Shown: one piece after another, positions 3,951 through 46,473 of the stretch
Layout: each line of letters starts with the position of its first letter
Numbering within the stretch: the first letter of the stretch is position 1
Source: Eledone cirrhosa
Lineage: Eukaryota
NCBI GenBank assembly: GCA_964016885.1
Contig: OZ024743.1
Coordinates: 230,516,001-230,580,000, forward strand
Length of the DNA stretch: 64,000 nucleotides
Direction of reading: 5' to 3'
Position numbers and translations under genes: made by a program
The notes under the pieces: generated by a model
Database searches by the model: none
Told to the model about the DNA's origin: nothing
What the model saw: the letters and a program-made list of their open reading frames with translations, nothing else

Positions 3951-4644
3951 TGCACTGTGTGGCATTCCCTTCATCAGTTGTTGATTTGGTTTTTTTTATG
4001 ATTTCGAATGCTTCTGGTTGTATCCCCCCCCCTCATATGTGTCAAGCGGATTTGATACTTACAGGGAATAACCCGTTTCCCGGTTTACTATGTAGTACAA
4101 TATCCGTCGTTAACCAGACTTGTATCACCAGTATTTTGGTGTTGTAAACATTCTCATTACTCAGTCAATTCGATGTTTTCATCTTACGCAGAGTTTCCTT
4201 TCTATTCTGAATGCTGGGATTTCACTCAAATCAGGGATTTCCAACGGGCTATGAGTCATTTCCTACTATCACATACAAAACATTTCCCATCAGACACCTA
4301 TATAGTAAATATAAACAAGTTTACAAAAAATGTTTTGTAAAAGTTTGTTTCTTGTTCTTATATGGATTTTGGTGTAGTAAAAAATACAAAGGGAAATGTG
4401 TGTGTGTGTGGGGGGGGGGGTTTTAACAAACAACGCTAAGTTATGCGGCTGCTGCTTCTGATACCGAATTAAAGAACAAAGAAAGCAAACTTGACCATTT
4501 ACAACTGTATTAATGTCAAGGTGATGGTAGCAAAGATTGCCCCCACTCTCTCAATCATTTTGCTTCGTGAGTTGAGGGCCATCAGATCTTAGTTGGCTCT
4601 CATTAAAAGCACGAAGTTTGGTGTCTGTGTAGTCTGTTATTGTG

Positions 4645-6297
4645 CATTTTGTTTTTGGAGAGGGAAGGAAGAGGACTTTTTCTTTTTGGGGTTCTTTTTC
4701 TTTTTTTCTTTTTTCCTGATACAGTTTCCCACTCCTCGTCGTCACAATCTGTCTCCAGTTGCGATAGGTCGGGGAGTGGAAAATCCTCCACAGTCGTTGG
4801 TTTTGGTTGTGGCGTGGTGGATGGTGGAGGCGCTGGTGCTAATTCTGGCGCGGTGGGTGGTGGTGGTGTCGGTTTTGCTACTTTTTCTGGGGTTGCTGCT
4901 GCTACAGTTGCTTCTGTTGTTGCTCCCATTTCTGCTGCTGGTGGTGTTGATGGTTGAGCCACTGGGGTGGGTAAGAGAGGTGGCCTCAACTTTTTAGCAT
5001 GAGGGCAGAAAGCCTTTAGGTGGTTTCTTTCATCACAAACGACACACCTAGGCCTTCTACCCTTAACGATTACGGTGAGGTGGCTGCCGTCATTGAGGTC
5101 TATCACCTCTGGATTTTCCTCAATGTTTTTTTGGTCCCCTTGGATCAGGAGCACCATCCCAGATCCGGACCAGTTCTCCTGCTTTTCTTTTGTTACTTCA
5201 ATTATTTTCGTGTTGGCTTCAATGCCGGCGAGGACGACAGCCATTAAACAGGGGTATTCGATGGCCGCTGGAACGTGGGTCAACCTGATCTTCACGAGTC
5301 TCTGACCACAATAGCTTGGGACAAGTGTGAAGTCGTCACTTCATAATGGGGTCATGTAATCCTATCTGGCTTCCTGTGGTGTTCCAAAAAAACACGTCCA
5401 CAGTTCCATATTTCTGCCCACGTCTGATGTGGTGGTTTTTCGCCCACACATGTCCCACAGTTTTATATTTGGGACTCGGATGCCCGTTCCAATCGGCGAA
5501 ATTTTGTATATAAGTGCCAATGCTCCATTTAATTAGGTGGGGGTGGGGTGGGGGTGAGGCTGACTCTGTGCCTACCTTTTTTTACCATTCTCTTGGCTTC
5601 ATTTAATTAATCCTGGCTTACCTCAATTGTTTCGCTTTTCTTGGCTGCTTTGGCAAACGACACATTTGCGCTGGTGTTGATGTTTTTGTTGTTGTTCTCA
5701 TTGTTGTTGTTGCTGTTGTTGTTATTGTTATCTTTATTATTGTTATTTTTAGTTTCAGTGGTGGTGGTGGTGGTGGTTGTGGTGGTGGCGTCAGTGGTGT
5801 TTGACGTGGAAGAGTCCATTCTGCGTGAATCCATTTCGATGTCACGAGATAATACTTTTTTGGGTTTTCTGTTGTCGCTGTGGTGGTGGTGGGGGTGGTT
5901 GCTTTAACACCTGCAGTTATTGGTAATGGCGGGAAATGAATGTCTGCATGTGACAAATTTAAATTATTGCCACTGCTTATATTTTTAGTGTTGGCAACCG
6001 TAGTAATATTTACAATGGTGGTGTTGGTGTGAGGTGTTAGTTTGTCAGGAAGGCTGTCAGTTTCGTGTGGCTCTGAGGCGTCCATGATTTTTTTAAAGAA
6101 AGTTTTTGTTTGATAATTATAAAAGTTTAAATTTGGGGCTCAAGGCCCCAACTTTTTGAGTGTCTTTTTCAGAAAGCAATATATGTGAACTTATAAAAAC
6201 TTAACAACAAAAATGTTCCATAACTGGCAATTTGAAACAACTGAAAACAACAAAACTTTGCGGAGTTCACGATAATACGATTTCTACGTAGGAGACC
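4645..6297 (-). mobile_element. Tx1-group LINE copy 1: 5'UTR and ORF1 only, 3' part lost
   Basis: Colinear with the 5' part of copy 6 (54611 downward); knuckle CVVCDERNHLKAFC; 5' end abuts (ATT)n 6298-6333; similarity to copy 6 stops at ~4645. Confidence 0.88.

Positions 6298-6333
<36 letters not shown>
6298..6333. repeat. (AAT/ATT)n array joining the 3' end of Tx1 copy 2 to the 5' end of copy 1
   Basis: Direct observation. Confidence 0.98.
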
Positions 6334-6334
<1 letters not shown>

Positions 6335-6596
6335 GTTTCTTTATTGGCCACAAGGGCTAACACGAAGAAAACAATTTTAGACGGCAGAGAACAGTACAGG
6401 ACGATACAAATTGGGTTTTGGTCGTGTAAACAAGTTGTAACAAAATTGGGCTAGAAATCAAAAGAATTCAAACAACAACAATTCCCAATATGGAGGAAAC
6501 CTCCGAAGCTCACACGTTGCGAAAACTACACAAAAAGGCCACGGCCACGCTAACTACCAGGGCACGCGCCCTCTCTTACTTTTCCCACTCCTCAGT

Positions 6597-9500
6597 CTAC
6601 AGTCGCATACTCAGAGCGGGCCCGTTCACTCGTACTAGACTCGCCACTTTCACCCACCTTTCAACAAACATACTAGAAGACAACACTTGCCTTTCCACAC
6701 TGATTTTCCTCTTCAAATGAAACTTGAAAAAGTTAATCAGGGATTGGCCGAAGAGGAAAGTGTCCTTCTTCAACCCTTTCAACCTTGTCCACCACACAAT
6801 CTCTTTAGCCATGGCCACCAGGTAGATGAAAACTGCCTGCCCTTCCTCCTCTTTAACGGAGGATGGCGGGGCTATCTGCAGAATGGACTCAGTCGATAAC
6901 CGGATCCGTCCTACACGCGACAGCAGCTGTTCGACATAGCTCCACATGTCAGAAATCCTCGGGAACTGAACGAGTGCGTCCAAGACGGTTTCTTCGCCCT
7001 GCGCGCATCACGGACAGGCTCGGCTGACAGCACCTCTTTGCCTGTAGAGCTTATCCAGAACCGGCAACGCTCCCCGGTAGCACTGCCAGGCCAGGGATTT
7101 TTGGAAGTTATCCATAGGCCCTGGACTGAATGTTCTCCGGAAGAGAGCAAACAGCTGATCGTCTTCGACGCCCAGCGCCTCAACGAGCATGTCATCGCTC
7201 TTTCCCTCCACTAGCCCTCTATAGAATGCCAAGGTGGATGTTCCACCAATATTTGTGCCCAGCTGCTAGAGCCAGGTGAGCGCTTGGAGACATTCCAGCT
7301 CCCAAGCGCTATCTCTTGGTCTTTTCCTGATCCAGGACGGCATCTCCGTCAAGGAGACGAGCTGGGGAAAAGCGCGTTTGGCAAACGGTGACCACACCTG
7401 TTCACCGCCAAGGAAGCACCAGAGACGTCGCAGCCTCAGCGCATGTTTGTTCATCATCAGCCACAGCATGCCTAGTCCTCCACGCAACGGGTGTTGACAG
7501 CAAATGGATCGTCTGACCATGGGAGCACGTCTCTTTCTCAAAAAGCGGAAGAGAAGGCACTCCATTTTGGTCAGAGTTGGGCGTGGGCGGTAGTAGATGA
7601 CGGATGCTAAGTACGCATTCGCCACCTCCGCCCGACCTTTCAGAAACATCTTCCTCTCGGCCCATTTCTGGGTGAGAGAGGCCACCCTGTTTGTCACCTC
7701 GCTCCTGTTTTTCTTCATCTGGAGGTCCGGAGCGAACGAGACCCCGAGCAATTTAACCGGTCCTTCCCTCCAGTGCCCAACGAATGCAGTCGGAAGGCAT
7801 GGACTTTCCTCTCCAGGTGCCGAGTTGCAAGCCCACACACTTTTCCTCGTTTATCTTTTCTCCTGTCACCGCTTCGTATTTCTTGATTGCGGTGTCGAGC
7901 ATTTGGACGTGTTTGGTGCTCGACACGACCACCGTGACGTCGTCGGCTTAAGCTGACACGGATCTCCCGCATCCCAGTTCGCGTGGGACTCCCTCATCGT
8001 CTCCAATTTGTGTAGTAACGGCTCGTGTGCCAGTACGTACAAGAAAGACGAGCGGTGGCAACCCTGGCGGACCGAGGGCATGATACTGAGCGGCTGCGAC
8101 AGGTGACCATTCACCCTCACAATCGAGCAGATGTCGCTGTGCATCGCAGTGATCCAGCTACTAAAAGCGGGCCCGAAGCCGGCCGCCTCAAGGACCGCAA
8201 CCAGGTACCGATGGTCGACCCTATCAAATGCTTTAGATTGATCCAAGTTGATCAGGGCCCTACCCGTGCCAGGTTCCTTAACCACCCTCTCTATGATGTT
8301 TCGCATGAGATGGAGGTTGTCGTGGATTGATCTGTCCGGAATGGCGCATGTGTGCGATCTACCACCAGGTCACCGATGACAAGCACCAATCTCTTTGCTA
8401 ACACCTTGGCCAAAATCTTAAACTTTGCGTTTAGCAGAGTTAGGGGCCTGAAGTTGTCTATAACGCCCCCCTTGTTTGGGTCTTTTCTCAGCAGCGCCAC
8501 CGCTCCCCGGCTCACAAAACTGGGAATGATCCCCTTCTGCTGCCAGTTGCAGTAGACCTCTGCCAATAGGTCGCCGAACTAGTCTGGCATATGCGCATAA
8601 AGTTCATAAGGCAGACCATCCGAACCTGCGGATTTACCCCTCGTGAAATCAGACATCGCTTCCCGTATTTCACCTGCTGTCATCGGCTTTTTGCAGCACT
8701 GTGCTGCGGTTGTCGAGAGCCGCGGCAGTCCGTCGAGGTATGCACCGAAGTCCATACTCTGATCCGCCCCGCCGCCGCTCCCGAACAATTGAGCAAACTG
8801 CTGTTGAAGAAAAGCCACACACATCTGCTCGGTTTCGAGCAACATGCGCCCGTTTTCATCAGGCAAATACCGAATTGTTGACTTGTTGCCACGTCGACCC
8901 CCCACCACCCGAGCCCATTGGACGTATTTTGTCCCCTCGTGTTTCAGAGCACGCGCTCTAGCTCCGACAACGCAGCCTTCATGTTTTGCGTGGAAGAATT
9001 GGTCGAGTGCCAATCTCGCCGCAAGCATATCGGTTGTGATGTCTGTCCTAAACGCCTCTTCTAGCTTTCTAACTAACCCTCCCTCTACTCTATTTTCCTC
9101 TATCACTACTCCTTTGCTAAACCTTATCTACTCTAATATCCCTTCAAGGGTAAACCACCACCTGTTGTTGTCGATCGCAGCCGTCAACGCACGCTTAACT
9201 AATTCGCTAATCCTGTCTCTGTATGCTTTGCGTGCCGGGAACGACCCATTCAGCTTCCAGTAGCCGGACCCTTGCTTATGGAGTCTATCTAAGTCAACAT
9301 CACAGGTAACAAATTTGTGGTCCGTGTAGTCGACTACTTTAAATTGTGGACAACCTACACTAGCTTTATCTGTTTCCCTACAGAATACCCTATCTAAATA
9401 CGATCTGAATTACCCGATGCGGTTTGCTCATGTCCACGTTGGCACATTCGGATAATCCAGTCTATACCTGTCAGGCAGTTAAAAACGTCTCAGCAGGTTG

Positions 9501-9995
9501 TTGAGGCTTTTAATCCCTCCTGCCCTGTCTACTAGTCCCACATAATCCCAGCATCCATCTAAGATACCGTTCCAGTCGCCCCTAACACTAAATAGCGGGA
9601 CGTTCCAAGAAAGATCTCTAGACGTCTGAAGAAATATGCCCGTCCTGTCTCTGTTGGGGCGTAGACGGCTACTAGCCTGAAAGTTTTGCCTTCGCTGCCG
9701 GTCACATCCAGCACCCCCAACTTACCTTCTGGATCCAGGAAGATGGCTCGTATGGCGAGATCCAAGCCTCTCCGAAAAAGCACAGCAACTCCTCCCCCGA
9801 TCCTGGACGGCTGGGAGATGCGTATATATCGTAGCCGCCGAAAATCAGTGCGAAGGCTCGTGCTTCGGAGATTCTGGTCTCGCTGATGGCCACCACATCT
9901 ATGTTTAGTGACCTGTGGTCGTGGAGCAGATGACCGTGCTTCCAAGAAGATCCCAGGCTACATACATTTATACTGCCTATTCTAAGTACGGCTAT
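6597..9995 (-). pseudogene. ORF2 of copy 2 (AP endonuclease, reverse transcriptase, CCHC), frameshifted
   Basis: VAISETR, VAVYAP, KSAGSDGLPYE, FRPLTLLN, DQSKAFDRVDH, VRQGC, VKLLGV, LRGGLGM; start codon mutated to ATA at 9995. Confidence 0.92.
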
Positions 9996-10024
9996 GTTGG
10001 ATGAGAAATGGGGTAATAGAAAAG

Positions 10025-11941
10025 GATCACTTACCTTGATCGTGTGGGGAAGGGACAGTAGAACCGTCCCTTTAACAGGTCATGGGTGTTTCCGATAGGA
10101 TATCGGCGTATATCCTCTTGGTAACCGACCCTCTGAAGTCTCCAACTGCGTTGGGGAATTTTTCTTTTAAAAGTTTATGTTCTATTTTAATTTCAATGAT
10201 GCTTATCTTTTCCGGGACAGTTCTTGTGTTGGTGGGGTGTAGCAATTTTTTTTTTCTGTGATGTCTTTGTGCTGTTTTATATGTTGTAACAGTTCTTTAT
10301 TTGCCATGTTGATAGCTGTGTACTTTTTGGTGGGAGGGGTGGTTTTGTTGCTGTTTTCTTCTTGTTGCTGTTGGGTATATGTGCTTTGTTGTGTTTGCGA
10401 TGTTAGTGTTTTTGGTGATGCTGGTGTTGATGTGGTTGTTGTTGATAGTGATGCTTGTGGTGGTGATGGTGGTGGCGCTAGTGGTCGTGGTGGTGGTGGT
10501 GGTGGTGGTGTTGCTGCAGGTCTCCTTGCAGCCTTTACCACTCTTTGTTTGGCCTTTGCTTTTAGAGGGTGAAGCTTATCACTTCCCTCCCGCCTCAATC
10601 TCCATGTCGAATTCCGTGGCGTTTGGGAGGGGTATGAGCTGCACTGCTGTTGGTGGTGGTAATGGAGCCCGCTCCGGTGATTTTGCCGCCGTTGTAGTTA
10701 CTGCGACTGTTGGTGTTTCCGCCACTGCTGCCACTGTTTTAGTTGTCCGTGGCCTTGTTATGGATGCCACGGTCGTTGCCCTCCAACTCACCATGGAAGG
10801 GTCTTCTTTGGCTGACTTCTGTGGGCAGAAGGCCTTGAAGTGACCCTTTCTGCCCACAGAGATAGCACTTTGGGCGCGCTTATAGGGAGCTGGAGTCCTT
10901 TCTCGAGGTCTATGATATCTGGGATGGCCTCGATGCACTCATTTTCAGTTTGTATTAGCATTTGCATGCCTATTCCTGGTCAGTTCTCTCTTCCCATTCT
11001 CTGTATTAGCAGTATGGTGGTCTTCTTCTCGATTCCAGCATATACAGACGTGGCCAGCCAAGGTGTGGGCACCTCGAGCGGGACTTGGTCACTTTGACAC
11101 TCACAATTTTCTGCCCGCAGTAGGAGGGCACCAAGACTATCTCCTCACTCTTTAGGGTTTCCAAAGAGTGAGACTCCGCCTCTTACGGGGTGGCGAAAAG
11201 TACGTCTAATGTGGCGTACTTTTTGCCTCGGTGATGTGGGTTTTGCGCGCCCAGACGCACCCCAAGGCCTTTTGGATTTGAGCCTCCATGGCTCTCTCCA
11301 CCGGATGTGACATTTTGCTTTCGGTGCGGTAAGTCACCATGTGCAGCTGCTGGTCTTTGAAGAAATCAGGTGGAGGTTTCAGGGAAACTCTATTCTCATG
11401 GCTCTTGCGACTGCCATCTCCTCCGTGACTTTCACTATCTCTATATTTCGGGCCACACCTGCGAAAGAAGTGGCCCCTTTTTCAGCAGCGCTATTATTGC
11501 TGCCGCTACTGCTGCTACTGGTCTTATTGTTGATGCTGTTGCTGTTGCTACTGCTACAAACGGTGTTGTCGGTGTTGTTGCTGTTATCACTGTTGTAGTT
11601 GCTATTTTTTTTGGTGCCACCGTTGTTGCTGTTTTCGGTGCAATTTGTATTGTTGCTGTTGGTGTTGTCACTATTTATTTTCTTATTAATGGTGTTAATA
11701 TCGTTGTTGCATTTGTTGTCATTTTTTTATGTTGTCTGTATTTTTGTTGTCGCTGTTATTGTTGTAGTTGGCGTGGTAATTTTTTTTTAAAACTAGTGTT
11801 CTCAGTGTTGTTGTCTTTCTTGACGTTATTTGTGGTGGTGTTTGTTGTATCAATTTCTGTGTTCGCCGTAACCCTCCTCTCAACTTTTACGCCGTTGTCA
11901 CACGACAGCAGATATATTGCTGGGGGACGTGGCTCAGCCAT
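10025..11941 (-). pseudogene. ORF1 of copy 2 (Asn/Thr-rich N-terminus, RRM-like core, CCHC knuckle, Pro/Thr-rich tail)
   Basis: MAEPRPP start; core ..QIQKALGCVWARKTHIT..KKYATLDV..VLVPSYCGQKIV; HFKAFC; KEKFPNAVGDFR. Confidence 0.85.
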
Positions 11942-12155
11942 GTTTTTATTTTATTTTTAAAAGTAAAAGGTTCAAATATTTGGGCCAATAGGCCCAAATA
12001 TTTTACTTTCTCCTTCGCAGGGCGAAGTCCAAGGTCTTATATTCCTTACACAACAAGAACAATTTAACAACAAATAATTATAGCAGGTAAATAAAACGAC
12101 TTACTGGGAGCGAGCAAAAAGACGTCCAAACAGACCAATAATAATAATATTAATT

Positions 12156-12334
12156 GTTTTTTACTTTTGGCACAAGGCCAGCAAACACCCAGTGTATTAC
12201 TGGTACTTTATTTTATCGACCCCGTAACGATGAAAGACAAAGTTAACCTCGGCGGGATTTGAACTCAGAATGGCAAGGGCCGTAACTCTACGCGTCAAAG
12301 CATGGCGACCGACCCTCTAGCAATACTGCCATCC
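12156..12334 (-). mobile_element. tRNA-derived SINE with (ATT)n tail
   Basis: Reverse complement has A-box-like tggcagtattgctag, B box gagttcaaatcc, core ttgtctttcatcgttacggggtcgataaaataaagtaccag and tail ggccttgtgccaaaagtaaaaaacaatt. Confidence 0.88.
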
Positions 12335-13683: not shown

Positions 13684-15730
13684 ATGGCGTAGGCACGCGC
13701 CCCAACTTTGACTTCGCTGTCTTGCGACAGCGATTCAAACGTTGAGATTAATAACGCTCCTCCTCCCACAACAATTTTAAAATGTAACAACACATCAGGC
13801 AATATCTCCAACAACAGCACCAACAACAGTGAGAACAAAAATGACAACAGCAGCGACAGCGACATTACCAAAGACATTAAAAAAAAAACAGTCGTGAACA
13901 AGAACGACAACAGCACCAGCGACAACTTTTCACAACAAATCCAACAACAACTGCAATAATGACAACAACACCAACAACAGAAAGAACGACAACAAAGACA
14001 AGAATATCAACAACAGTGACAATCACAACAACAGCAACAATAACAATAGCAGCAGCAACAATATCAACGAAAACAACAACGAAATTAACACCACTAACTA
14101 GAACATGAACAGCGACAGCACCAACAACAACAATACCAACTGCACCGAAAACAACAATAACGGCGGCACTAAAGACAACAATGATAACAGCAACAGTGAT
14201 AATAGCAACAATACCAACAACAACAACGACAACAACAACAACACCAACGACAAGAAGAAGAACACTTTCGCTGCGGCAGCAGCCAAAAACAGGCCATGCT
14301 TCAGTACGGACCTCTCGAAGGAAGATGAAAAGTTGGCCCAGGCCTGGATGCTCATCAAACAAGGGCAAACCTTGGCCAACTTAACTGCCCCGGTAGAAGC
14401 TATTGAAGCAGTGGAGCGCAGAACGGTACATTACAGATGCATCTCAGCGGAAACTAAGAGGGCAGCTTTAATTCCACAAGCAGATGTCGAAGTCGCGCTG
14501 AGGTGCATCAGGGATGACACCGAATACATAACGAGGGGCAGACAATACGGTACCATTTCGGTGCTGTTTAAGTCAGAAGCACTCGCTATGAAACATGCTA
14601 TGACACCTTGCAAAACCAGCAAGGTCATAATGTACCCCTCCCTCATGGGAAAAAGATCGGCCCGTCTCCGCATTCCCAGAATCCCACCAGGACTTGACAT
14701 GTGGTGGCTTTTGGGATGTGTGGAGGGGACGGATACCATCCCGATAGAAGTAACAAGAACTGCCTAAGAGGATTGGTCCGGGGTTGACCTGGAGATACTT
14801 CTCCAGATCAGGCCAGAGAATATCAAAACAATCGCGGTCCACATCCGTCTTCAGAACGGGACGGTCATTCACATTATGACCGAAGGGAAAAGGCCGGATT
14901 GTTTCGTTTGTGGAGAAAAAACCCATTTGCGAGCCTTCTGCCCTCAACACATGAAAGATGCAAGGGGTTGAAGGGCTCCACTGCTGCCGACGAAAGGACG
15001 AGGACCACAACCAACACCAGCACCGGGAAAACCACCAGCAACAACACCAATAGAAAAACCAACACTAACATTAACCACCCATGGGGGGAAACGAGGAAAG
15101 TTGCCCCCCCCCCCCTCCTCCAACACACACATCAATAAAAATAAAATCACACACACAGACGCAGACACAGTTACAGACACAGACCCCTCATCTACCAGTA
15201 GTGAAGATGAGGGAAAACCAAAATCCCCTAAAATACAAAAAAGGAAACACAAAAAGAAAAAAAAACTCAACAAAGCACAAAAACACCCACAATAAAAAAT
15301 GCAGACACCACCCACGCAAACATCTCCCCAACAACACCAACATCAACACCACCATCACCATCACCATCACGAGAATCCCCCAAACGCAAACAACCTAAAC
15401 AGACGCAAGAACAAATACACACACAAACATCTGAAACCACAGACACCGCACTCACAACAAATACAGACAGCACCGAAACAACACCATCAAAACCATCACC
15501 ACCATAGCCACGCAAACAAATAAAAACCCACCAACAAAACATACAAAACTTCGTGCTCGTCAGGAGGGCCAACAAGGAACTGATGGCCCTCATAGCACGA
15601 AGTGAAGAAATACAAAAAGTGGGGGAAATATTTAAATCGAGCACATATCGTGTGCCGGAAGATTTGCTTCTGGTGCGAATGTCACTCGATTTATGCAAAG
15701 AGATACGAGACAGCTTTCCTCGGGATGTAA
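13684..15730 (+). pseudogene. ORF1 of copy 3
   Basis: Asn-rich N-terminus, TFAAAAA motif, core YITRGRQYGTISVLF..IPRIPP, CCHC knuckle, stops and frameshifts; 3' end approximate. Confidence 0.82.
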
Positions 15731-15763
15731 GTAAACCTTTCCTCTCACTTTTAGCCTGCCAAC

Positions 15764-18700
15764 ATGACCATATTAATAGCAGGATGTTGAAATGTTTGAG
15801 GCCTTGGAACGTCCTGGAAGCAGGGTCACCTGCTCAACCACCTCGGGTCCCTAGAAATGGATGTAATTGCCATTAGCAAGACCAGGATGTCCGACACGCT
15901 CCTAATTTCGACGACTATCAGATCTTCGCATCTGTTAGTCGGCAGGGAATGGGAGGTGGGGTGGCAGTGCTGTTTATGAAAAGCCCGGATCTCGAGGTAA
16001 GAATCCATCTTCCGGGACCCGGACGGTAATTTGGTGGTCCTGGACGTGAACAATAGCGAAGGTGGTGCCTTTAGACTGGTGGCCGACTAAGGCTCCCACC
16101 GGGGAAGGACGGCCGGATTTTTTAGACGCCTGGAAGCCTTTATGGGCACGTCTCGCCCTTTACTGTTAGAGGGGGACTGGAACGGCATCTTAGAAGCACG
16201 CTGGGACAGTGTGGGAGTATCCGATAAGAGTGCGGTGTGGGGTACACAAACCTCAAGTACCTGATCAGCCAGTCCCAACTGTCGGACAGGTACCGATTAG
16301 ATTTTCCTAATGCGCCAGTGTGGACCTGGACAAATCGTTTAGGAACATCTAGATCGTACATAGATAGGTTTCTAATTTGATTATTGGATAAGGATAGTAT
16401 AGGGTGTTCACAATTACATACGGTCGCTTATTCAGATCACTAGTTTGTTATATGTATGGTCAACCTAGATAAGACGCGTCGGTTAGGACCTGGTTACTGG
16501 AAGCTGAACATGTCGTTTCCGGCACGTAAGGCTTACAGTGACCGAGTCAACAATTTAGCCAAGAAAAATTTGACAGGTGGAGTTGTCAACAATAGATGGT
16601 GTGTGTGGGGAGGGGGCTCTCAAAGGAGAGACTAGAGTAATGTCGATAGGTTCTAGCAAAGAGTAGCATTAGAGAAAAATAGAAAGGAGTGGGAGCAGGT
16701 AGATAAGTTAGGCGAGGCTATTTGTAGTGGCATTGCAACTGACATGCTAGCGGCGAGAATGGCATTAGATCATTTCTTCAATGCGAAACACGGAGGTTGC
16801 ATTGTCAGAGCTAAGGCGCGTGCTCTGAGAAACGAGGAAACCAAAGCTATTCGAGGGGCCCGCGTGGCAGAGGCGCAGCATGGTAATAAAACCACAATTC
16901 GGTCTTTGACGGACCGAGACGGACACGAGCTGAACTATTCCAAGAGGATGTGTGAGGCCTTTCGCCAACATTTTACTCGGTTGTTCGGGAGAAGTGGCGG
17001 GTCAGAGACGGTTGCGGACTTTAATCGCTACCTCGAGGACTTGCCGCAACTCTTGACGTCAGAGGCTGAGTGCTGCGAAAGGCCGATTACTGCAGCCGAG
17101 TTTCAGGATGCCCTTGTTGGTTGCATGAGGCGCAAGTCACCCGGTTTGGATGGTCTGACCTACGAGCTTTACGTAAATATGCCAGACTTGTTCTCCGATC
17201 TCCTCCAAGCGCTCTACTGCAAATGGCAGCATAATGGGAGTATTCCCAGTCCTGTGAGAAGGGGAGTGGTGACGCTCATAAGGAAAGAGGTGAACAAGAG
17301 AGACACACTAGTCAATTTTAGGCCCATACATCTGCTCAACTCATAGTTTAAGATTTTGGCCAAGGTGTCAGCGAAGAGATTAGCGCTTATCGTCGAGGAT
17401 TTGTTTGGGGAGGCGCAAACTTTCGCGATCCCGACCAGGTCCATACAACCTCCACCTGATGCGATACATGATAGAGAGGGTGAGGTGTAAACCTGGCTTC
17501 GGTGGGGTTCTGATCAATTCAGATCAATCGAAAGCATTCGATAGGGTCGACTATCGGTACCTGGAAGCTGTCCTCAAGGTAGCTGGCTTCGGCCACCGTC
17601 TTCAGAAGTTGGATCGCTGCAATGCACAGGGGCATCTGATCGATGGTCATAGTTAAATGCCACCTCTCGGAACCGTTTCAGATCTCCCGATAGGTCCGTT
17701 ATGGGTGCCCTCTCTCCTCCCTTCTGTAGGTATTGACTCTCGAGCCTTTACTGCAGAAGTTGGCGCTGTTGCAGGGCATCCCACTTGAACCAGGACGGGG
17801 AAAGGCTGTGTCGGCTTATGCGGACGACATCACCGTGATGGTGTCGGACACTTCGGAAATCTAGGTGTCGGCAACTTATTGGAGGAATATGAAAGGTTGA
17901 TAGGAGCACAACTTTACCTGGAAAAGTCGGTGGGCTTACAACTTGGCACCTGGACGGACGGACCGGTAAAGTTGCTTGGAGTTTGGTTCGGGCCTGAACT
18001 CCAGGTGGATAAATATTGAAATGAGGTGATGGCCAGCGGAGCCAGTCTCACCCAGAAATGGGCTGTGAGGAAGCTATCACCGAAAAGTCGGGGGGAGGTG
18101 GCGAACGCGTACATCGAGTTCGTCATCTACTACCGCCTCACCGACGTCACTTGCTCCCGTTAACGCCTCGCCAACTTGGAACGGTTCCTCTTCAAATTCT
18201 TGTGGAGGGGACAGGTTCTGTTGGTGAGGCGGTCCATCTTCTGCCAGCACCCTCTACGTGGAGGGATGGGCATGCCGTGGCTACTGATGTGCAAACGCGC
18301 TGAGGCTGCAGCATCTCCAGATATTCTGCCTAAACGGTGAACAGGTGTGGTCGTGGTTTGTCAGACGGGCCATTTCGCAGCTCGTCTCTTTGGCTGAACT
18401 GCAGTCCTGAGTCAAGAAGAGACCGAGACTGGGTGACTAACATCTGAAATGTTGCCAGGCACTCAGTGCCCTCTACCAGGCGAGAAATGCGGTCAGTGGA
18501 ACTTCCACTCTCGAGTTCTATAGAGGCTCTGGGCGTCGACGAAGTCGAACTAAACAGTCTGTTCCCGAGGACTTTCGAGGCGGGAACGATGGATCACTCG
18601 CTTGGCAGTGCTACCGGAGGGGACTGCCGGTTCGAGATAAACTCTACAGGCATGGAAGTGCTGTCAGACATACCTGCCCGAGATGCGCGCTGAGCGACGA

Positions 18701-19093
18701 AACCGTTCTGCACGCACTCATCCAGTCTCCATGTATTACTGACATGTGGAGTTATGTCGAACAGCTGTTGTCGCGTGTAGAACGGATCAGGCAATCGGCC
18801 GAGTACATAGTGAAGATCGACCCACCGCCTTCTTTTGGCCAGGAAGGGCAGGCAATTTTCCTCTGTCTGGTGGCAGTAGCGAAAGAGGTTGTATAGTGGA
18901 CCAGGTTGAAAGGACTAAAGACAGATGTTTTTCTCTTCGGCCAATCCCTCATCAACCTTTTCAAGTTTCACTTGGAAAGGTATGTGAGGGAGGCGAGAAA
19001 AATACTGCCCCCCCTAGTACATTTACTGAAAGGTGAGTGAATGCGGCGAGAATGGCCCGTGTGAGTGGTTCTACTCTGATCATGCGCCTGCAG
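15764..19093 (+). pseudogene. ORF2 of copy 3 (APE-RT), disrupted
   Basis: caacATGaccatattaatagcagg start matches the other copies; ORF 16744-17346 and downstream RT motifs; many stops. Confidence 0.9.
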
Positions 19094-19352
19094 GTGGGGG
19101 AATTTGAGGTGGAGAGGAGTGCCCTTCCCGGGTGCTCTCGAAGCGTCGGATCGTTCAGGATTGGTAGGTACCTGAGTGAACCCTGAGTGGTCATCCCGCC
19201 CTATTGAGGAATTTTCCTTGTATTTTTATTGTTATTTTGTTATTGTTATTTATATTGTTTACACGTTGTATATGTAACCCCCATTGTCCCTGTCTTTTTG
19301 TATTGTCCCCTATATGTCGGCCCTTGTGGTCAATAAATGAAACTATAATTAT

Positions 19353-19381
19353 ATGTAAACCCTTGTTGTTAATAAAGAAAG

Positions 19382-19382
<1 letters not shown>
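19353..19382 (+). mobile_element. 30-bp 3'-terminal stub of the copy 4/5/6 Tx1 lineage
   Basis: atgtaaacccttgttgttaataaagaaagc matches the copy 4 end atgtaaacccttgtggttaataaagaaagc (25475-25504) with one mismatch. Confidence 0.8.
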
Positions 19383-19456
<74 letters not shown>

Positions 19457-19660: not shown

Positions 19661-19871
19661 ATGGAATGCCATGGTTGATGGAGCCTCGGCTTTGTAAGGT
19701 ACAGTAATTTTTAACCGCTATAACAATTGTAAATTCTTTAAAACTTGAACCAAATTATAGATAAAAACACCCTCCTCCTTGTGAGAGGGGTGATTCTGCT
19801 CTTTATTTGGCCCTTCGGGGTTAAATAACCGCTTATTGGTGCACAATATTCGTTTTAAACCGTATAAAAAC

Positions 19872-22027
19872 ATGGCTACAAAAAATAATTTTAACAAGTT
19901 ACTCCCACTCATTCCGGCTTCTTCTTCTTCAATCGTCACTACATCAGTACATCAGAGAAAAGATTGTCTCTCTCCCTCCATTCTCTAAATGTGGTGTCGC
20001 CTATTTCTCAAGCGACGCCATTAAAGAAAGAGAACAATATAGTTTCTGGTAGCTTTCACCAAGAGAATGTGCATACCGTGGAACATTTCTCCACGACGAC
20101 GACAACGACGAAAAATGTGTGCGATAAATACGGAAAGCCATTTCATTCGTCTGACGTCATGAATAATAGCAGCAGCAGCCGCAATAACAGCAGCAGCAGC
20201 AACAGTGGCAAGGAAAATACTAGTACAGGCCGCAACAACATCAGCAGCAGCATAAACAACAGCAGCAGCAGCAGCAACAGCAACAACAACAGCAGCAGCA
20301 GCAACAACAACAACCACAGCAACAGCGGCGGCGGCGGTCGTAGTATCAGTAGCAACAACAAAAGTAACAGCAGCAAAGAACAACAACAACAACAAAGAAA
20401 AAACAACCTCGGTTGCAGGTATCGCCAAGAACCTGGAAACCATCCTTATAACAAATTAGGAATTACAGGAAGCAAGGAACATGGTGACGAAAACCGGTCA
20501 CCGAGCAATCTGCAAGGCAGCCGAAGAATTTTTCGAAACCCAACAGCAATGTACGGTTACGTACCGTACAGTAATCACAAAATCACGTAGGGTTGAAAGA
20601 GCCAAGGAGGCTCAAATACAAAAAGCCTTAGTGTCTGTGTGGCAGCGGAAAACGCATATCACCCGAGGCAAGAAATATGCCAGCGTGGACGTGCTTTTTG
20701 CCACACCCCAGGAGCCAAAGGCTCAATCCTTAGTGACCCTAAGGAGTGAGGAAATGGTATTGGTGCCCTTTTACTGCGGGCATAAAATTGTGAGGGTCAT
20801 ACTGACCCAGATCGTCGAGCCCTTGGATGGCCCCTTCTTGGCTGGCAGCGTCTCTCCTCGTCAGAATCGAGGACAAAACAACTGTACTGCAAGTACAGAA
20901 AAAAGTACAAGAAGATTGAGTCGGCACCTCCATTGAGATGTTAATTCAAAACAAACAGGAGTGCATCGAAGCTATCCCGGATGTGATAGACTTCGATAAC
21001 GGCACTCAACTGCCCATAAGTGTTGAGGGCAAACGCCCGTAATGCCTTCGCTGTGGGTCAAAAACTCACCCCAGGGTCTTCTGCAATGAGAAGACGCTGA
21101 GAAATGAGTAAAAGCCTCCTCCTTACGAAACCGGCTCCACTGCTACCAGCAACAGGACAGGCGGAAACCAGGAAGGATAGGTCCGTGGCACCCATACCCA
21201 CGCCACGGAAACCAAGAACAGCAGCAACAGTGGAAGTATGAACAACAACAACAGTAATACCAACTGCAGCTGCAACAGAGACTCCACTGCAACCATCACC
21301 AACAAGAACAAGTGAAAGAGTATAGCTGGTACCCCTCCCCGACCTCACAGAATCGGACATGCAGTTGTAGGTGGGAGAGGGATGGCAAAAGGTCGCAAGA
21401 AGTCACAAACGCAGAAGCAACGCATCGTCGACTGCGAAAGGGGAGGGAAGAAATGGAAAAAGGGTAAAGGCTACTGCAAAGAGACTTACAGCAGCAACAC
21501 CACCAACACCATCACCAACCACACTAGCACCACCATCACCACCGGCGGAAAACCCACCACCACCAACAACAACACCTTCCACACCACCACCACAAGCACC
21601 AACATCGCAAACACAACAACAAAACACATACACCCAGCAAAAACGACAAGAAAATAGCAGAACCCCAGCCACCCCCAGAAAAAGAAATGCACAGCAATAA
21701 ATACACACAAGAAACTAATGACTTACATAATTGAACACACAGATATTTCACAGCACGACTACATAATACCAGCACCAATCAGACCACCAACGAACATAAG
21801 ACTGCTAAGAATAGCACAGAAACAATACACAAAACATTAAAATGAAATTCCCCAACGCAGTTGGTGATTTCAGAGACCTAGGAGGGACACTCAACCGGAG
21901 AGTATATTCGGATATACGCACAGAAGAGGCGACGACCAGCCGAAGGGACGATTCAACGGTCCCTTCACCAGACGATCAAGTGAAAAGTGATGGAGAAACC
22001 ATCCTTCCTCTACGAGAAGTAAGGTAA
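19872..22027 (+). pseudogene. ORF1 of copy 4
   Basis: aaaacATGgct start; Ser/Asn-rich region; VTYRTV..QIQKAL..HITRGKKYASVDV; degenerate knuckle; ends ETILPLREVR*. Confidence 0.85.
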
Positions 22028-22061
22028 ATGGTCTTTCCCATCTTTTTCACTCCATTTCAGC

Positions 22062-25000
22062 ATCACCTCACTCAGAATAGGCAGCATAAATGCGCGTGGC
22101 TTGGGGTCGTCATGGAAGTAGGGCCACCTGCTCAACGACCTCAGGTCACTAAATATAGATGTAGTGGCCATCAGCGAGACCAGAATCTCCGAAGCACGGG
22201 CCTTCGCACCGATCTTCGGCGGCTATGATGTCTACGCAACTACCAGCCGTCCTGGATCGGGGGAGGAGTTGCTGTGCTTTTTCGGAGAGGTTTGCATCTC
22301 GCTATACGGGCCATCTTCCTGGACCCAGGAGGTAAGTTGGTGGTGCTGCACGTGACCAGCGGAGACGGGCAAGCTTTCAAGCTAGTGGCCGTCTATGCCC
22401 CGACAGGAGCAGGGTGGCCTGATATCTTCCGGCGTCTGGAGACATTTCTTGTAATGTCGCGCTCTTTAGTGTTAGTGGGCGACTGGAACGGGATCTTAGA
22501 TGCACGCTGGGACTGTGTGGGATTAGTGGATAGGGGAGGAGGGTGCAAGAGCCTCAGCAACCGGCTCGGACGTTTTGAACTGTCTGACAGGTACCGATTG
22601 GATTTCCCGAATGTGCCAATGTGGACTTGGACAAATCGCGTTGTGTCATCCAGATCATATCTAGATAGAGTATTTTGTAGGGAAATTTATATGTCTTGCA
22701 TAGGCTGTCCACAATTCAAGATAGTCAGCTACACGGACCACACATTTGTGATCTGTGTGCTTGACTTAGATAGGCTTCATAGACGAGGACCCGGCTACTG
22801 GAAGCTAAACGCGTCCTTACCAGCGCGCAAGGCCTACAGAGACCGGATTACCGAACTAATATTTCAATGCAAAGCACGAAGGCTGCGTGGTCAGAGCTAG
22901 GGTGCGTGATCTCAAACACGAGGTGACGAAAGCCGTTCAATGGGCACGAGTGCGGTGACGCGTCGTGGCATCAAAGCAACGATTCGGTCTTTGGTGTACC
23001 ACGACGGGCACATGCTACTCGTTCCCGGGCAAATGTGTGAAGCTTTTCAGCGACACTTCGCACAGCTGTTCGGGGGAAGCGGCGGGCCGGATCGAGGGAT
23101 GGACTTTAGTGTCTACCTCGACGGAACTGCCGCAGTGCTGGAACACTGAGGCGGAGTGTTTCGAAAATCCGATAACACCGCTGAAGTACGGGAGGAAATG
23201 ACTGGCTGCACAAGGGGTAAATCGCCTAGCTTGGATGGTCTGCGCTACGAACTTTACGGACAGATGCTAAACTTGTTCGGGGGCCTCTTGGCGGACGTCT
23301 ACTGCAACTGGCAACATAATGGGAGGATTTCCAGCTCTGTGAGCCGAGGAGCGGTGCGCTGCTGAGAAAGGATCCGAACAAGAGGGATAACATAAATAAA
23401 TTCAGGCCCATAACTCTGCTAAACACAGAGTTCAAGATTTTGGACAAGGTGCTAGCAAAGAGGTTGGCGCTTGTCGTAGGGGGTCTGGTGGGAGAGACGC
23501 AGACATGCGCCATTCTCGACAGATCCATCCACGACAACCTCCACCTCATGCGGTACATCGTAGAGAGGGTAGCTAGGGAACCTGGCATGGGTGGGTCCTT
23601 GATCAATTTAGATCAGTCGAACATCGTTACCTAGCGGCAGTCCTGGAGGCGGTTGGCTTTAGACCCGTCTTCAGAGGCTGGATCGCTGCCATGCACAGTG
23701 ACATCTGCTCTGTGGTGAGAGTGAACTGTCACCTTTCGGAACCGTTCAATATCATGCGCTCGTTCCGCCAAGGATGTCCCCTCTCCTCCCTCTTGTAAGT
23801 ATTTACTCTCGAGCCATTACTGCACAAACTGGAGACGTTGAGGAGGTCCCGCGCGGACTAGGATGCAGAAGATCCGTGTCAGCATATGCGGACGACGTCA
23901 CCGTAGTGGTGCCGAATGCCAAACACATCGAGGCCTTCGGCACTACACTAAGAGAATACGAAGCGGTGACAGGAGCAATGATCAACCAGGAAAAGTCAGT
24001 GGGCCTGCAGCTCGGCACCTGGAGAGGCAGGTCCATGCCGTCCAACAGCGTCGTCGAGCGCTGGACGGACGGACCGGTTAAATTGCAGTTTAATTTCAGT
24101 CTTTGTCCGTCTGGAGGTCTGGACCGAACCGTCTGGTTCGGTCCGGACGTACAGACGTACAAAAACTGGGACTAGGTGACGAGATAGTTGCTTCTCTCAC
24201 CCAGAAATGGGCGGAGTGGAAGCTATCCCTGAAAGGTCATCTGCTAGGGCCTGAACGTCATACCTTGTCTTAATCCCCACCTGACTGCGCTGGAGCGTAT
24301 GCTCTTTCGCTTTTTGTGGAAGGCGGTGGTCAGGCGGTCCATCTGCTGTCAATACTCGCTACGTGGAGGGCTGGGCATGTCGTGGCTGATGATGTGCAGA
24401 AACGCGCTTAGGCTACGACATCTCCACATCGTCCTCGACGGTGATCAGGTGTGGTCGCCGTTTGCTAGACGCGTATTTCCCCAGCTCGTCTCCTTGACGG
24501 AGCTGCAGTCCTGGGTCAAGCGAAGACCGAGAGGGAGCGCTTGGAGACTGGAATATCTTCAGGCGCTCACAGCCCGCAACCCATCGGGCAATGTGATCAG
24601 TGGAAACTCCACCTCTGCGTTCTATAGAGGATTAGTGGAGGGGATGAGCGACGACGTACTTGGGGAAACTCTAGGCGTCGACGAAAATCAACAAGCCAAT
24701 CTCTTCGGAAGAACTTTCGGGCCGGGGCCTATGGACAACTTCCTCAAATCCCTGGCCTGGCAGTGCTACCGAGGAGCTTTGCCAGGTCGGGATAATCTCT
24801 ACAGGCATGGAGGTGCCGTTAGCCGGGCATGTCCGAGATTCCGCGCAGGGCGACGAAACCGTCCTGCACGCACTCGTCCAATGTCCGAGTATTGCTGCCT
24901 TGTGTGTTTATGTCGAACACCTGCTGTCGCGTGTAGGACGGATCCGGATATCAGCTGAGTCCATCGTGAGAATTGCCCCGCCCTCTTAGCTTAGCCGGGA

Positions 25001-25251
25001 AGGGCAGGCAGTTTTTATCTGTCTTGAGGCCATGGCGAAAGAGATAGTATGTTGGACAGGTTTGAAAGGGCTGAAGACGAGCACTAACCTCTTCGGTCGG
25101 TGATGCCCTGATTAACTTTTACAAATTTCATTTGAAACGGAAAATCAGGGTAGAGAGGGAAGTGCTCTCTTCCCAGCATTTTGTTGAAAGATGGGTGAGA
25201 AAAGCAAGAATGGCCCGAGTGAATGGGCCTACTCTGAGTATGTGTCTGTAA
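22062..25251 (+). pseudogene. ORF2 of copy 4 (APE-RT-CCHC), frameshifted
   Basis: LRIGSINARGL, VAVYAP, LVGDWN, SYLDRV, YTDH, SAYADDVT, CP...ETVLHALVQC; start mutated to ATC. Confidence 0.92.
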
Positions 25252-25533
25252 ATTAAAGGTGGAAAACTGGGAGAGGGCACTTGCCCTGGTGGTCAGGGTC
25301 AGTGTGGCCTTTTAATGGGCTTTCTCCACAAATGTCCCTCGGAAGTCTCCCCCCTATTGGGGAATTTTGTCATCGTTCTATTATTACATCCTCTGTTTTT
25401 TGTTTTTTTTTACACGCAGAAATGTCCATTTGTACCGTCTTGTATTGTCCTGTACTGTCCTTAATGTCTACTTTATGTAAACCCTTGTGGTTAATAAAGA
25501 AAGCATTATTATTATTATTATTAATATTATTAT

Positions 25534-42365: not shown

Positions 42366-42840
42366 GCCAGAGGCGGTGATGGAGAACAATCAGGTGAAGG
42401 TGCTGTGGGATTTTAGGATACAGACGGACAAAAAACTGGAACACAATAGACCTGACCTGGTGGATGTGGACAAAGAAAAAAGATCGTGCCTGATTGTGGA
42501 TGTGGCCTGCCCGTTCGACACGAGAGTGCAAGAGAAGGAGAGGGAGAAAATTAACCGATACCAGGACCTAAAGTGGGAGGTGAAAAGGATTTGGAACTGC
42601 CATGAAGTCAAAGTGATCCCGATTGTCATAGGCGCACTGGGGACTATCTCCAAAAGTTTCCAGGGATGGTTAAAGAAAATCGGCCCCTTCACGCTTTTTG
42701 GAACGCTTCAAAAGGCATGCTTGCTTGGAACAGCAAGAACCCTCCGATACGTCCTGAATATCTGAGGCTGCAGGTAGTGGCTTGATATTCAATCCAACGG
42801 ACTTTCCAGTTAACCAACATCAATGACTGAGATTCAAGGA
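42366..42840 (+). mobile_element. 5'-truncated R4/Dong-like element (REL endonuclease and 3'UTR)
   Basis: Open frame 42376-42765 ENNQVKVLWDFRIQTD..HNRPDLV..IVDVACPFD..EKINRYQDL..PIVIGALG..LQKACLLGTARTLR; (TAA)n on both sides. Confidence 0.92.
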
Positions 42841-43105
42841 ATAATAATAATAATAATAATAATAATATAAATGATTTATTTATTAACCACAAGGGTTTAC
42901 GTAAAGTAGACATTAAGGACAGTGTAGGACAATACAGGACGGTACAAACGGGCATTTCTGCGTGTAAAGAACAAAAACAGAGGATGTAACAAAAAAATAA
43001 CAATGAAAAATTCCCCAATAGGGGGGAGACTTCGGAGGGACATTTGTGGAGGAAGCGATCCTGACCCCCAAGGCAAGTGCCCTCTCCCAGTTTTCCACCT
43101 TTAAT

Positions 43106-46100
43106 TTAGAGATAAGTACTCAGAGTAGGCCCATTCACTCGGGGCATGCTTGCTTCTCTCACCCATCTTTCAACAAAATGCTGGGAAGAGAGCACATCCC
43201 TCTCTACTCAGGGCATCACCGAAGAGGTAAGTGCTCGTCTTCAGCCCTTTCAAACGTGTCCACCATACTATCTCTTTCGCCATGCCCACCAGACAGATAA
43301 AAACTGCCTGCCCTTCCCGGCTAAAGGAATAAGGCGGGGCAATCCTCACGATGGACTCAGATGATAGCCGGATCCGTCCTACACGCGACAGCAGGTGTTC
43401 GACATAAACCCACAAGTCAGCAATTTTCGGACACTGGACGAGTGCGTGCAGGACGGTTTCGTCGCCCTGCGCGCATCTCGGACATGCCCGGCTGACGGCA
43501 CCTCCATGCCTGTAGAGTTTATCCCGAACTGGCAAGGCTCCTCGGTAGCACTGCCAGGCCAGAGATTTCTGCGGTCCCGGCCCGAAAGTTCTTCCGAAGA
43601 GATTGGCTAGTTGATTTTCGTCGACGCCTAGAGTTTCCCCAAGTACGTCGTCGCTCTTCCCCTCCACTAATCCTCTATAGAACGCCGAGGTAGAGTTTCC
43701 ACCGATCACATTGCCCGATTGGTCGAGGGCTGTGAGCGCCTGAAGACATTCCAGTCTCCAGGCGCTCCCTCTCGGTCTTCGCTTGACCCAGGACTGCAGC
43801 TTCGTCAAGGAAACGAGCTGGGGAAATACGTGTCTAGCAAACGCCAACCACACCTGATCACCGTCGAGGAAGAGGTGGAAATGTCGTAGCCTGAGCGCGT
43901 GTCTGCGCATCATCAGCCACGGCATTCCCAGCCCTCCACGTAGCGGGTGTTGACAGCAGATAGACCTCCTGACCATCGGAGCGCGTCCCTTCCACAAAAA
44001 GCGAAAGAGCAAACGCTCCAGCGCAGTCAGGCGGGGCTTAGGACAAGGTACGACGGTCAGGCGGTAGCAGATGACAGACGCAATGTACGCGTTAACCACC
44101 TCTGCTCGACTTTTTAGGGATAGCTTCCACTCCGCCCATTTCTGGGTGAGAGAAGCCACTCTGCTCGTCACCTCGTCCCAGTTTTTGTCCGTCTGGAGGT
44201 CCGGACCGACCAGACCCCTAGCAATTTAACCGGTCCGTCCGTCCAGCGTCCGACGATGCTGTTGGACGGCATGGACCTGCCTCTCCAGGTGCCGAACTGC
44301 AGGCTCACTGACTTTTCCTGGTTGACCATTGCTCCTGTCACCGCTCCGTATTCGCTTAATGAAGTGCCGTTCGCCTCGATGTGTTTGGCGTTCGACACCA
44401 CTACGGTGGCATCGTCCGCATATGCTGACACGCATCTTTCGCATCCTAGTTCGCGCGGGACGCCCCCCAGCGTCTCCAGTTTGTGCAGTAATGGCTCGAG
44501 AGTCAATACGTACAAGAGGGACGAGAAGGAACATCCTTGGCGGACCGAGCGCATGATGTTGAACGGTTCAGACAGGTGACCGTTCACTCTCACCACAGAG
44601 CAGATGTCGCTGTGCATGGAGGCAATCCAGCCTCTGAAGACGGGCCCAAAGCCAGCCGCCCTCAGGTCTGCCGCTAGGTAACGATGGTCGACCCTATCGA
44701 AAGCTTTCGACTGATCTAAATTGATCAAGGACCCACCCGTCGCAGGTTCCCTAGCTACCCTCTCTACGATGTATCGCATGAGGTGGAGGTTGTCGTGGAG
44801 GGATCTGTCGGGAATGGCGCATGTCTGCGCCTCTCCCACCAGACCACCAACGACAAGCGCCAACATCTCTGCTAGCACCTTGGCCAAAATCTTGAACTCT
44901 GTGTTTAGCAGCGTTATGGGGCGGAAATTATCTATGTTATCCCCCTTGTTCGGATCCTTTCTCAGCAGTGCCACCGCTCCTCGGCTCACAGAACTGGGAA
45001 TTCTCCCGTTCTGTTGCCAGTTGCAGTAGACGTCCGCCAAGAGGCCTCCGAACAAGTCTGGCATCTGTACGTAAAGTTCATAGGGCATACCATCCAAACC
45101 AGGCGATTTACCCCTTGTGCAGCCAGTCATTGCCTCTCTTACTTCAGCGGCTGTTATCAGCTTTTCGCAACACTTCGCCTCAGTGGCCGAGAGCCGCGGC
45201 AGTCCGTCGATGTAGACACTAATGTCCATCCCTCGACCCGGCCCACCGCTGCCCCCGAACAGCTGAGCGAAGTGTCGCTGAAAAGATTCACACATTTGCC
45301 CAGGATCGAGTAGCATGCGCCCGTCGTGGTCCACCAAAGACCGGATCGTGGCTTTGTGCCACGACGCGCCTCCCCCACTCGGGCCCATTGAACGGCTTTC
45401 GTCCCCTCGTGTCTGAGAGCACGCACCCTTGCTCTGACAACGCAGCCTTCGTGCTTTGCATTGAAGAATTGGTCAAGGGCCAATTTCGCCGCAAGCACGT
45501 CGGTCGAAATGCCTTTGCTAAGCGCCTCGTCTAATTTTCTAACTAGTTCTCCCTCTGCTCTATTTTTCTCTATTGCTAAAGCCTTACTAAACCTAATCGA
45601 TTCTATTCTAATCGCTCTTTTCAGAGCAAACCACCACTTGTTGTTGACGATGCCCCCCAACAACGCCCGCTTAACTAGTTCGCTAATCCGGTCCCTGTAG
45701 GCCTTGCGCGCTGGTAAGGACGCGTTTAGCTTCCAGTAGCCGGGTCCTCGTCTATGAAGCCTATCTAAGTCAAGCACACAGATCACAAATTTGTGGTCCG
45801 TGTAGCTGACTATCTTGAATTGTGGACAGCCTATGCTAGACCTAGCTATTTCCCTACAAAATACTCTATCTAGATATGATCTGGATGACCCTATGCGATT
45901 TGTCCAAGACCACATTGGCACATTCGGGAAATCCAATCGGTACCTGTCAGACATTTCAAAATGCTTGAGCAGGTTGGTGAAGCTTTTACACGCTCCACCC
46001 CTATCCTCTAATCCCACACGGTCCCAGCGTGCATCTAAGATCCCGTTCCAGTCGCCCACTAACACTAAAGAGCGGGACGTTCCAAGAAAGGTCTCCAGAC

Positions 46101-46473
46101 GCCGGAAGAAATCAGGCCGCCCTGCTCCTGTCGGGGCATAGACGGCCACTAGCCTGAAAGCTTGCCCGTCTACGCTGGTCACCTCCAGCACCACCAACTT
46201 ACCCTCTGGGTCCAGGAAGATGGCCCGTATGGCGAGATCCAAACCTCTCCGAAAAAGAACAGCAACTCCTCACCCCGATCCAGGATGGCTGTGAGATGCG
46301 TACACATCCTAGCCGCCGAAGATCGGTGCGAAGGCCCGTGCTTCGGAGATTCTGGTCTCGCTGATGGCCACTACATCTATGTTTAGTGATCTGAGGTCGT
46401 TGAGCAGGTGACCCTGCTTCCATGACGACCCCAAGCCACGCGCATTTATGCTGCCTATTCTGAATGAGGTCAT
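43106..46473 (-). pseudogene. ORF2 of copy 5 (APE-RT-CCHC), few frameshifts
   Basis: ATG at 46473; LVGDWN, SYLDRV, YTDH, KSPGLDG, FRPITLLN, DQSKAFDRVDH, VRQGC, SAYADD, CPRC..ETVLHALVQC. Confidence 0.95.

Follow-up and report, generated by a model that had tools for sequence, protein, structure and literature searches.

A conserved U1-complementary donor-like motif at the ORF1/ORF2 junction of L1/Tx1-type LINEs in Eledone cirrhosa

The window, i.e., the whole stretch of 64,000 nucleotides analyzed here (Eledone cirrhosa, assembly GCA_964016885.1, contig OZ024743.1, positions 230,516,001 to 230,580,000 of the forward strand; host genome size 3.0 Gb), contains five decayed copies of a two-ORF LINE and one ORF1 fragment. 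The fragment, copy 1 (4643..6333, minus strand), comprises a 5' end and a partial ORF1 and is truncated ahead of the ORF1/ORF2 junction, so that it lacks the donor-like site described below. Copy 2 (6318..12177, minus strand, lineage B) is a decayed two-ORF element with a poly(A) signal at 6345 followed by (ATT)n. Copy 3 (14021..19400, plus strand, lineage C) is likewise decayed, with the ORF2 ATG at 15764 and the poly(A) signal at 19371. Copy 4 (19668..25533, plus strand, lineage A2) is near full length and its ORF2 ends in TAA (25249-25251). Copy 5 (42840..48827, minus strand) is near full length, belongs to the youngest lineage, A1, and stands head-to-tail with copy 6 (48832..54637, minus strand, lineage A2; ORF2 stop at 49096-49094).

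In an intact relative (L071), the 5'UTR measures about 210 nt, ORF1 has 720 aa with a CCHC knuckle, ORF2 has 1139 aa and the 3'UTR measures about 250 nt; the element has AATAAA and an (ATT)n tail. Its ORF2 matched PF03372, PF00078 and PF13966, corresponding to an APE endonuclease, a reverse transcriptase (RT) and a C-terminal zinc-binding domain. ORF1 measured 593-720 aa and carried the CCHC knuckle in all seven lineages checked, with no Pfam family above the cut-off. An APE-RT-zinc ORF2 and a separate ORF1 with a nucleic-acid-binding motif are the features of L1/Tx1-type LINEs. Tx1-clade LINEs are target-specific, and the present elements resemble them in the APE-RT-zinc-finger ORF2, the zinc-knuckle ORF1, the microsatellite tails and the tandem arrays. 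Recent activity of L1-Tx1 elements has been reported in Octopus vulgaris (PMC13282606).

A pattern derived from the endonuclease yielded 11,655 matches in the genome and 23 in the control. Nine lineages were sampled from the host genome, those named D to H coming from outside the window; their ORF2 sequences are 69-96% identical at the DNA level, and they form two clades, between which ORF1 for the most part cannot be aligned. Insertions are associated with microsatellites or repeats, with (ATT)n at both ends in lineage A, (ATT)n tails in B and C, (TCTA)n-like tails in E-H, and head-to-tail arrays. Copies of lineage D are concentrated towards the chromosome ends, with 5.8-kb tandem arrays among them (C1, C2), those of A and B being spread along the arms. 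One element (L177, G000:C1:18927448-18934470) is a chimera of a lineage C ORF1 end and a lineage A 3' end.

A sequence-only reading of the window had placed a GTAAGT-like splice-donor motif shortly before ORF2 in five copies, and all five coordinates and strands proved correct. The donor-like site (positions -3 to +6) lies at 10029..10037 (minus strand) in copy 2, 15724..15732 (plus) in copy 3, 22021..22029 (plus) in copy 4, 46507..46515 (minus) in copy 5 and 52483..52491 (minus) in copy 6. The distances from motif to ORF2 start in copies 2 to 6 (39, 37, 38, 39 and 38 nt) were also reproduced; the start codon itself is decayed in copies 2 and 4, and is an ATG at 46473 in copy 5 and at 52450 in copy 6. 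As described in that reading, the spacers of the window copies are pyrimidine-rich and close in a CAAC-ATG-like context; in copy 2 the spacer and the decayed start codon (9995) occupy 9993..10028 on the minus strand. Copy 4 is mutated at +5 and copy 6 at +2. Since the hexamer is stable within families (exact in 26 of 30 lineage A copies taken in genome order and in 17 of 19 other B copies), both changes represent decay.

The form AG|GTARGT was present at the ORF1/ORF2 junction in nine of nine sampled lineages, with CG| in the youngest; when 30 elements were taken in genome order with the endonuclease pattern, 29 had the motif there. Among the lineage representatives, the only variation from +1 to +6 was A or G at +4. 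Six of the eight motif columns are invariant across the nine lineages, as compared with three of about 75 columns upstream and none in the pyrimidine tract, and the flanks cannot be aligned between lineages. An equally strong site was found in only 18 of 945 control windows from the same elements. For comparison, the nine lineages agree at 43 of the 171 four-fold sites in ORF2 (pairwise differences 0.07-0.47, i.e., not saturated).

The same donor-like site occurs in a family from another assembly with about 40% identity to the present elements in ORF2 protein, where it lies 13 nt 5' of ORF2 and 4 nt 3' of the ORF1 stop; all 49 matches, which stem from overlapping loci, carry it. This outgroup was retrieved from eukaryotic contigs (L318-L360), many of them tandem LINE arrays, in a bacterial MAG record (CAXXMW01, titled Arenicella sp.), probably as host contamination. 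Additional donor-like sites are present in its 5'UTR and shortly 3' of its ORF2 stop, and its 3'UTR has a strong acceptor-like site. The outgroup family was placed in a sister clade with a support of 1.0, in a tree composed of unnamed relatives. Another member of the sister clade (L353) lacks the junction donor, so that the outgroup site may stem from shared descent or from convergence. Regarding 54 more distant families, three had such a site before ORF2 (25 of 3,278 control windows, about 0.4 expected), which sets the present elements apart from the Tx1 clade at large; the junction donor is a clade feature, not a general one of Tx1. The three are L1/Tx1-like elements (L308, L313, L315) with a strong donor 26-42 nt ahead of ORF2. 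A first metagenome scan and a viral scan found nothing.

The spacing, which had been regarded as fixed at 37-39 nt, ranges from 25 to 47 nt among lineages (D, 25; E, 27-28 with one copy at 34; G, 37; C, 37-40; A, 38-39; B, 40; H, 45-47) and is 13 nt in the outgroup. What had been missed is the ORF1 stop codon, which lies inside the motif in lineages read in phase 2 (A, D, E, H and part of G) and begins at its last base in those read in phase 1 (B, C). In copy 5 the site holds the stop TAA (46511-46509); in copy 2 the family's stop would begin at the last base of the site (10029-10027). Among 30 lineage A copies examined, the stop was at +1 in 23 of the 24 with at least 100 open codons. The phase of lineage G is mixed (phase 1 best in three of six copies, phase 2 in the others). 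In lineage F, ORF1 reads through the motif in true phase 0 and continues for 36 nt. The occurrence of the motif in different ORF1 phases had been used to argue for constraint on the nucleotide sequence; this argument stands in another form, the motif being kept in phases 2, 1 and 0, but copy 3 has to be withdrawn as the example of phase 0. Its reading is the product of a private 109-bp deletion that ends immediately 5' of 15727, since a segment of about 109 nt absent from copy 3 is present in 19 of 19 other family copies fetched, and lineage C as a family is read in phase 1 like copy 2. The ORF1 C-termini of C, D, E, F, G and H, whose tails are otherwise unalignable, share a recurrent Met-Asp/Glu motif in good start context 9-16 codons ahead of the donor.

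It could be argued that the motif is an inherited stop-codon context without a function of its own: all lineages descend from one ancestor, the motif spells stop codons in two frames, and the four-fold sites are unsaturated (43 of 171 invariant). This is distinctly improbable. From the four-fold rates, six invariant columns and one A/G column would be expected at about 1e-4 (an arithmetic that leaves partial coding constraint aside), the flanks are unalignable, and the motif persists in lineage F without an overlapping stop, and in a family with 40% protein identity. Also unlikely is a translation signal, i.e., a termination context, an element for ORF2 reinitiation, or the site of another factor that merely resembles a donor, to which the position of the motif nevertheless lends some weight: it overlaps or adjoins the ORF1 stop in eight of nine lineages and in the outgroup. 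The ORF2 start of lineage F is not ATG, since an ATA overlaps the ORF1 stop in 639 genomic matches, as opposed to none with ATG at the usual start; the six copies L153, L154, L155, L179, L180 and L181 have no ATG there, and in L153 both ORFs are intact. Translation of ORF2 is therefore unconventional in lineage F, and its at least 639 copies without an ORF2 ATG point to termination-reinitiation on unspliced RNA, for which the stop-start coupling of SART1 is a precedent (PMC3894237). However, the motif varies in position relative to both the stop (-4, +1, +5, +36) and the ORF2 start (13-47 nt), and the variant it tolerates, A or G at +4, is the one that U1 tolerates.

The host U1 gene was retrieved, and its RNA forms 8-9 pairs with the motif (-10.3 to -12.2 kcal/mol). 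U1 tolerates A or G at +4, and a U-rich tract 3' of a donor can help to recruit it via TIA-1-type proteins. The junction GT ranked first among the 284-359 GT sites of the sense strand in eight of ten elements and second in lineages G and A1; a conserved 5'UTR donor was not found in the five lineages checked. Together, the invariant columns, the control windows, the pairing with U1 and the rank among GT sites give good support to the earlier claim of a constraint at the nucleotide level with the look of a U1 site. Judged from the sequences, the signal at the junction is real, under selection and U1-shaped; its conservation is observed, splicing from it is predicted. Engagement of U1 at the site, in one form or another, appears probable.

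Such engagement need not lead to splicing. U1 might bind the site only to guard the RNA from cleavage at cryptic poly(A) signals or to control its nuclear handling, which would account for the same conservation and the same pairing and which we consider the principal alternative, possible if on the unlikely side. Protection by U1 independent of splicing has been reported for the plant element EVD (PMC5580714), and a donor in the 5'UTR of human L1 is described as conserved but rarely used (PMC5860796). AATAAA or ATTAAA hexamers occur within 750 nt upstream of the site in eight of ten elements; against this, they are about as frequent in shuffles of synonymous codons (lineage G, with 5 versus 2.3, being a possible exception), and the downstream ORF2 holds just 0-2 of them. 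In EVD, protection by U1 and splicing can coexist.

A candidate acceptor for the junction donor is found at the other end of ORF2. In seven lineages (B-H), the TAG that ends ORF2 also supplies an acceptor-like AG 3' of a pyrimidine-rich stretch; in copy 2 this is the ORF2 end at 6597..6620 (minus strand), with the TAG at 6599-6597 as the putative acceptor. By a crude acceptor score, this AG came first among about 260 in F and G (five of five copies each). Its rank was 1-5 in C and 9-15 in B, D and H, which puts these four lineages within the upper 6%; in E it was 10 and 25. When the donor was joined in silico to the ORF2 stop, an ORF1-frame stop followed without a further codon in D, G, H and B, after 0-1 codons in C and after three in F, so that a frame-matched stop lies within 0-3 codons in six lineages; the predicted end of the ORF1 protein is unaltered in D, G and H. 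Lineage E lacks such a stop (36-95 codons), and the three of six G copies read in phase 1 run for 35-52 codons after the join. In the phase-2 clade this stop is found at +1, in the phase-1 clade at +2 or shortly after it, a tracking of donor phase that amounts to only about two independent events. (Note that the pyrimidine tract is coding sequence, and that AG|GT followed by purines frequently reads as a stop codon by itself.) Lineage A has TAA in place of TAG and, 165-170 nt further 3', a U-rich CAG that is absent in B; this CAG ranked second in three copies and would give a stop 14-19 codons past the join. The candidate ends at 25419 in copy 4 (plus strand), 42958 in copy 5 and 48923 in copy 6. 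The most abundant lineage combines a weaker donor (A1) with the absence of an AG at the ORF2 stop, which tells against splicing. Binding of U1 without splicing fits the conservation of the donor, which exceeds that of any acceptor, but leaves the acceptor-like stop codon and the phase-matched stops unexplained.

More than 3,000 donors from seven lineages (A-G) were screened for retrocopies cut precisely from the junction GT, as called for by the sequence-only reading, and none was found. (The exact 19-23-mer screens miss old copies, and those of D, E, F, G and C were aimed solely at the predicted acceptor.) For lineage A, with 8,352 A-type 3' ends in the genome, none of 2,076 exact exon ends belonged to an ORF2-less retrocopy; in two generic screens, 8 and 13 of the 2,076 deviated, none being spliced and one being a microhomology deletion. 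For lineage B, 30 of 651 deviated (29 point or small changes, and the locus L226 discussed below), none being spliced at the predicted acceptor. One match among 303 in D was not spliced, and those in F (1), G (1), E (7) and C (21) were all point changes or small deletions. An acceptor-side screen of F and G gave one chance match, and a search of ORF1 homologues for spliced C-termini found none.

Several single candidates were rejected as spliced copies. L082 has a 433-nt deletion from the donor with 3-nt microhomology and an end other than AG, L399 has a short deletion from the donor, also with microhomology, L370 is a double point mutant and L450 a chance match. The 109-bp deletion in the window, which starts with GT and ends with AG, has a poor donor and 2-nt microhomology and was without a second copy among 40 candidates scored. 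An old single copy (L226, G000:C7:35089888-35092910) is ambiguous: through a deletion of about 3.0 kb, its ORF1 end, of B type, is linked at the donor and in frame to an A-type end of the ORF2 zinc finger. The deletion would be GT-AG only if the parent had an A-type context, with an AG that the five B neighbours with readable context lack. L226 may be a spliced retrocopy using an internal site or a microhomology deletion.

These searches bear most directly on a mini-intron across stop and spacer that would fuse ORF1 to ORF2, and for which AG sites 53 and 62 nt downstream in lineage A would give an in-frame fusion. An RNA of this kind would encode the enzyme in cis and should have left many copies, of which there are none among the 2,076; the introns would moreover be very short, the outgroup spacer being 13 nt. 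Because such RNA would have been copied and no copies are seen, the fusing mini-intron is largely refuted and has scarcely any probability left.

A joint in RNA at this GT, the other check proposed earlier, was not seen among the joints listed for the RNA-like run X5, where lineage A was examined. Three contigs (depth 78, 22 and 4; summed, 104) cross the lineage A donor unspliced, and no joint or loose end was listed there; X5 was taken as poly(A) RNA-like from its 3' depth and size. Runs X4 and X6, which may be DNA, bridge the same donor at a depth of 7-10. The lack of spliced copies and the unspliced X5 contigs agree with U1 binding without splicing. They are weak evidence against an ORF2-less RNA, because this RNA would need the enzyme in trans, the type of X5 is deduced, and lineage A, in which splicing is least expected, has lost the acceptor at its stop. 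L1 proteins show a cis preference (PMC5860796), so that the absence of retrocopies bears less on an RNA without ORF2.

Tentatively, and with nearly as much to be said against it as for it, we prefer the reading that the site acts as an alternative donor giving an ORF1-only mRNA, in the manner of copia; the U1 binding, the splicing and the purpose are inferred, and conservation, U1 complementarity, acceptor-like sequence and frame-matched stops are what was established. A U1-complementary 5' splice site would be kept at the end of ORF1 in two-ORF LINEs, and in some transcripts all of ORF2 would be removed as an intron of about 3.45 kb, the predicted acceptor being the ORF2 stop TAG itself (B-H) or the U-rich 3'UTR CAG (A, where the stop is now TAA). 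The unspliced RNA would yield ORF2p by reinitiation and would be the sole RNA copied back, for which reason every copy would keep the intron. U1 on the unspliced RNA may additionally suppress premature cleavage, as for EVD. The earlier proposal that ORF2 is removed by splicing can now point to a putative acceptor at the ORF2 stop, followed by a stop codon in the matching frame, but to neither a precisely ORF2-less retrocopy nor a donor joint in the RNA-like run. More cautiously still, the whole ORF2 of this LINE clade might be regarded as a regulated spliceosomal intron bounded by two stop codons. Non-LTR elements would then be able to alternate between full-length and ORF1-only RNA much as copia does, and this switch would have persisted in families whose proteins are just 40% identical.

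Drosophila copia and plant Ty1/copia elements make a subgenomic Gag mRNA by splicing (PMC5580714). As described there, the structural gene of copia and EVD ends, like ORF1 of the present elements, in a conserved U1-type donor; their splicing removes the enzyme-coding sequence and creates a stop, and the template is the unspliced RNA, three points that are predicted likewise here. The copia intron is about 3 kb (PMC5580714), that predicted here about 3.45 kb. In contrast, splicing has been demonstrated in copia and EVD, which are LTR elements with a single ORF (PMC5580714), whereas the present ones are non-LTR elements with two separate ORFs, an ORF1 with its own stop and splicing that is predicted. 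Human L1 is similar as an L1-type element with an old, conserved and rarely used donor; its donor, however, belongs to the 5'UTR, owes its retention to a RUNX3 site and leads to splicing that is a dead end (PMC5860796), whereas here the donor is at the ORF1 stop. Splicing is considered harmful to L1, and SpIREs, which encode ORF2p, make up about 2% of full-length copies (PMC5860796); no such copies were found here. LINEs need far more ORF1p than ORF2p, and the usual account is inefficient translation of ORF2 from one bicistronic RNA (PMC3894237). The predicted spliced product would have an ORF1-plus-tail form, although no element of this form was found here. That form is shared by HAL1 elements (half-L1), which are ORF1-only.

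A donor kept at the ORF1 stop by selection would be a case of a non-LTR element tuning its own expression through U1, either by convergence on the strategy of copia or as an off-switch offered to the host. No description of such a LINE junction donor was found by title or abstract start in the literature covered (Repbase reports and most subscription journals lying outside it), and the signal is apparently undescribed so far. Exact junctions are predicted for each lineage and are directly testable in existing RNA-seq data.

Elsewhere in the window, a fragment of a PIF1-like helicase (PF05970; 36677-37321, minus strand) is probably a Helitron relic. A SINE- or MITE-like repeat of about 190 bp occurs at 12138-12331, 19470-19662, 31778-31965 and 32096-32237, its copies being 86-95% identical.
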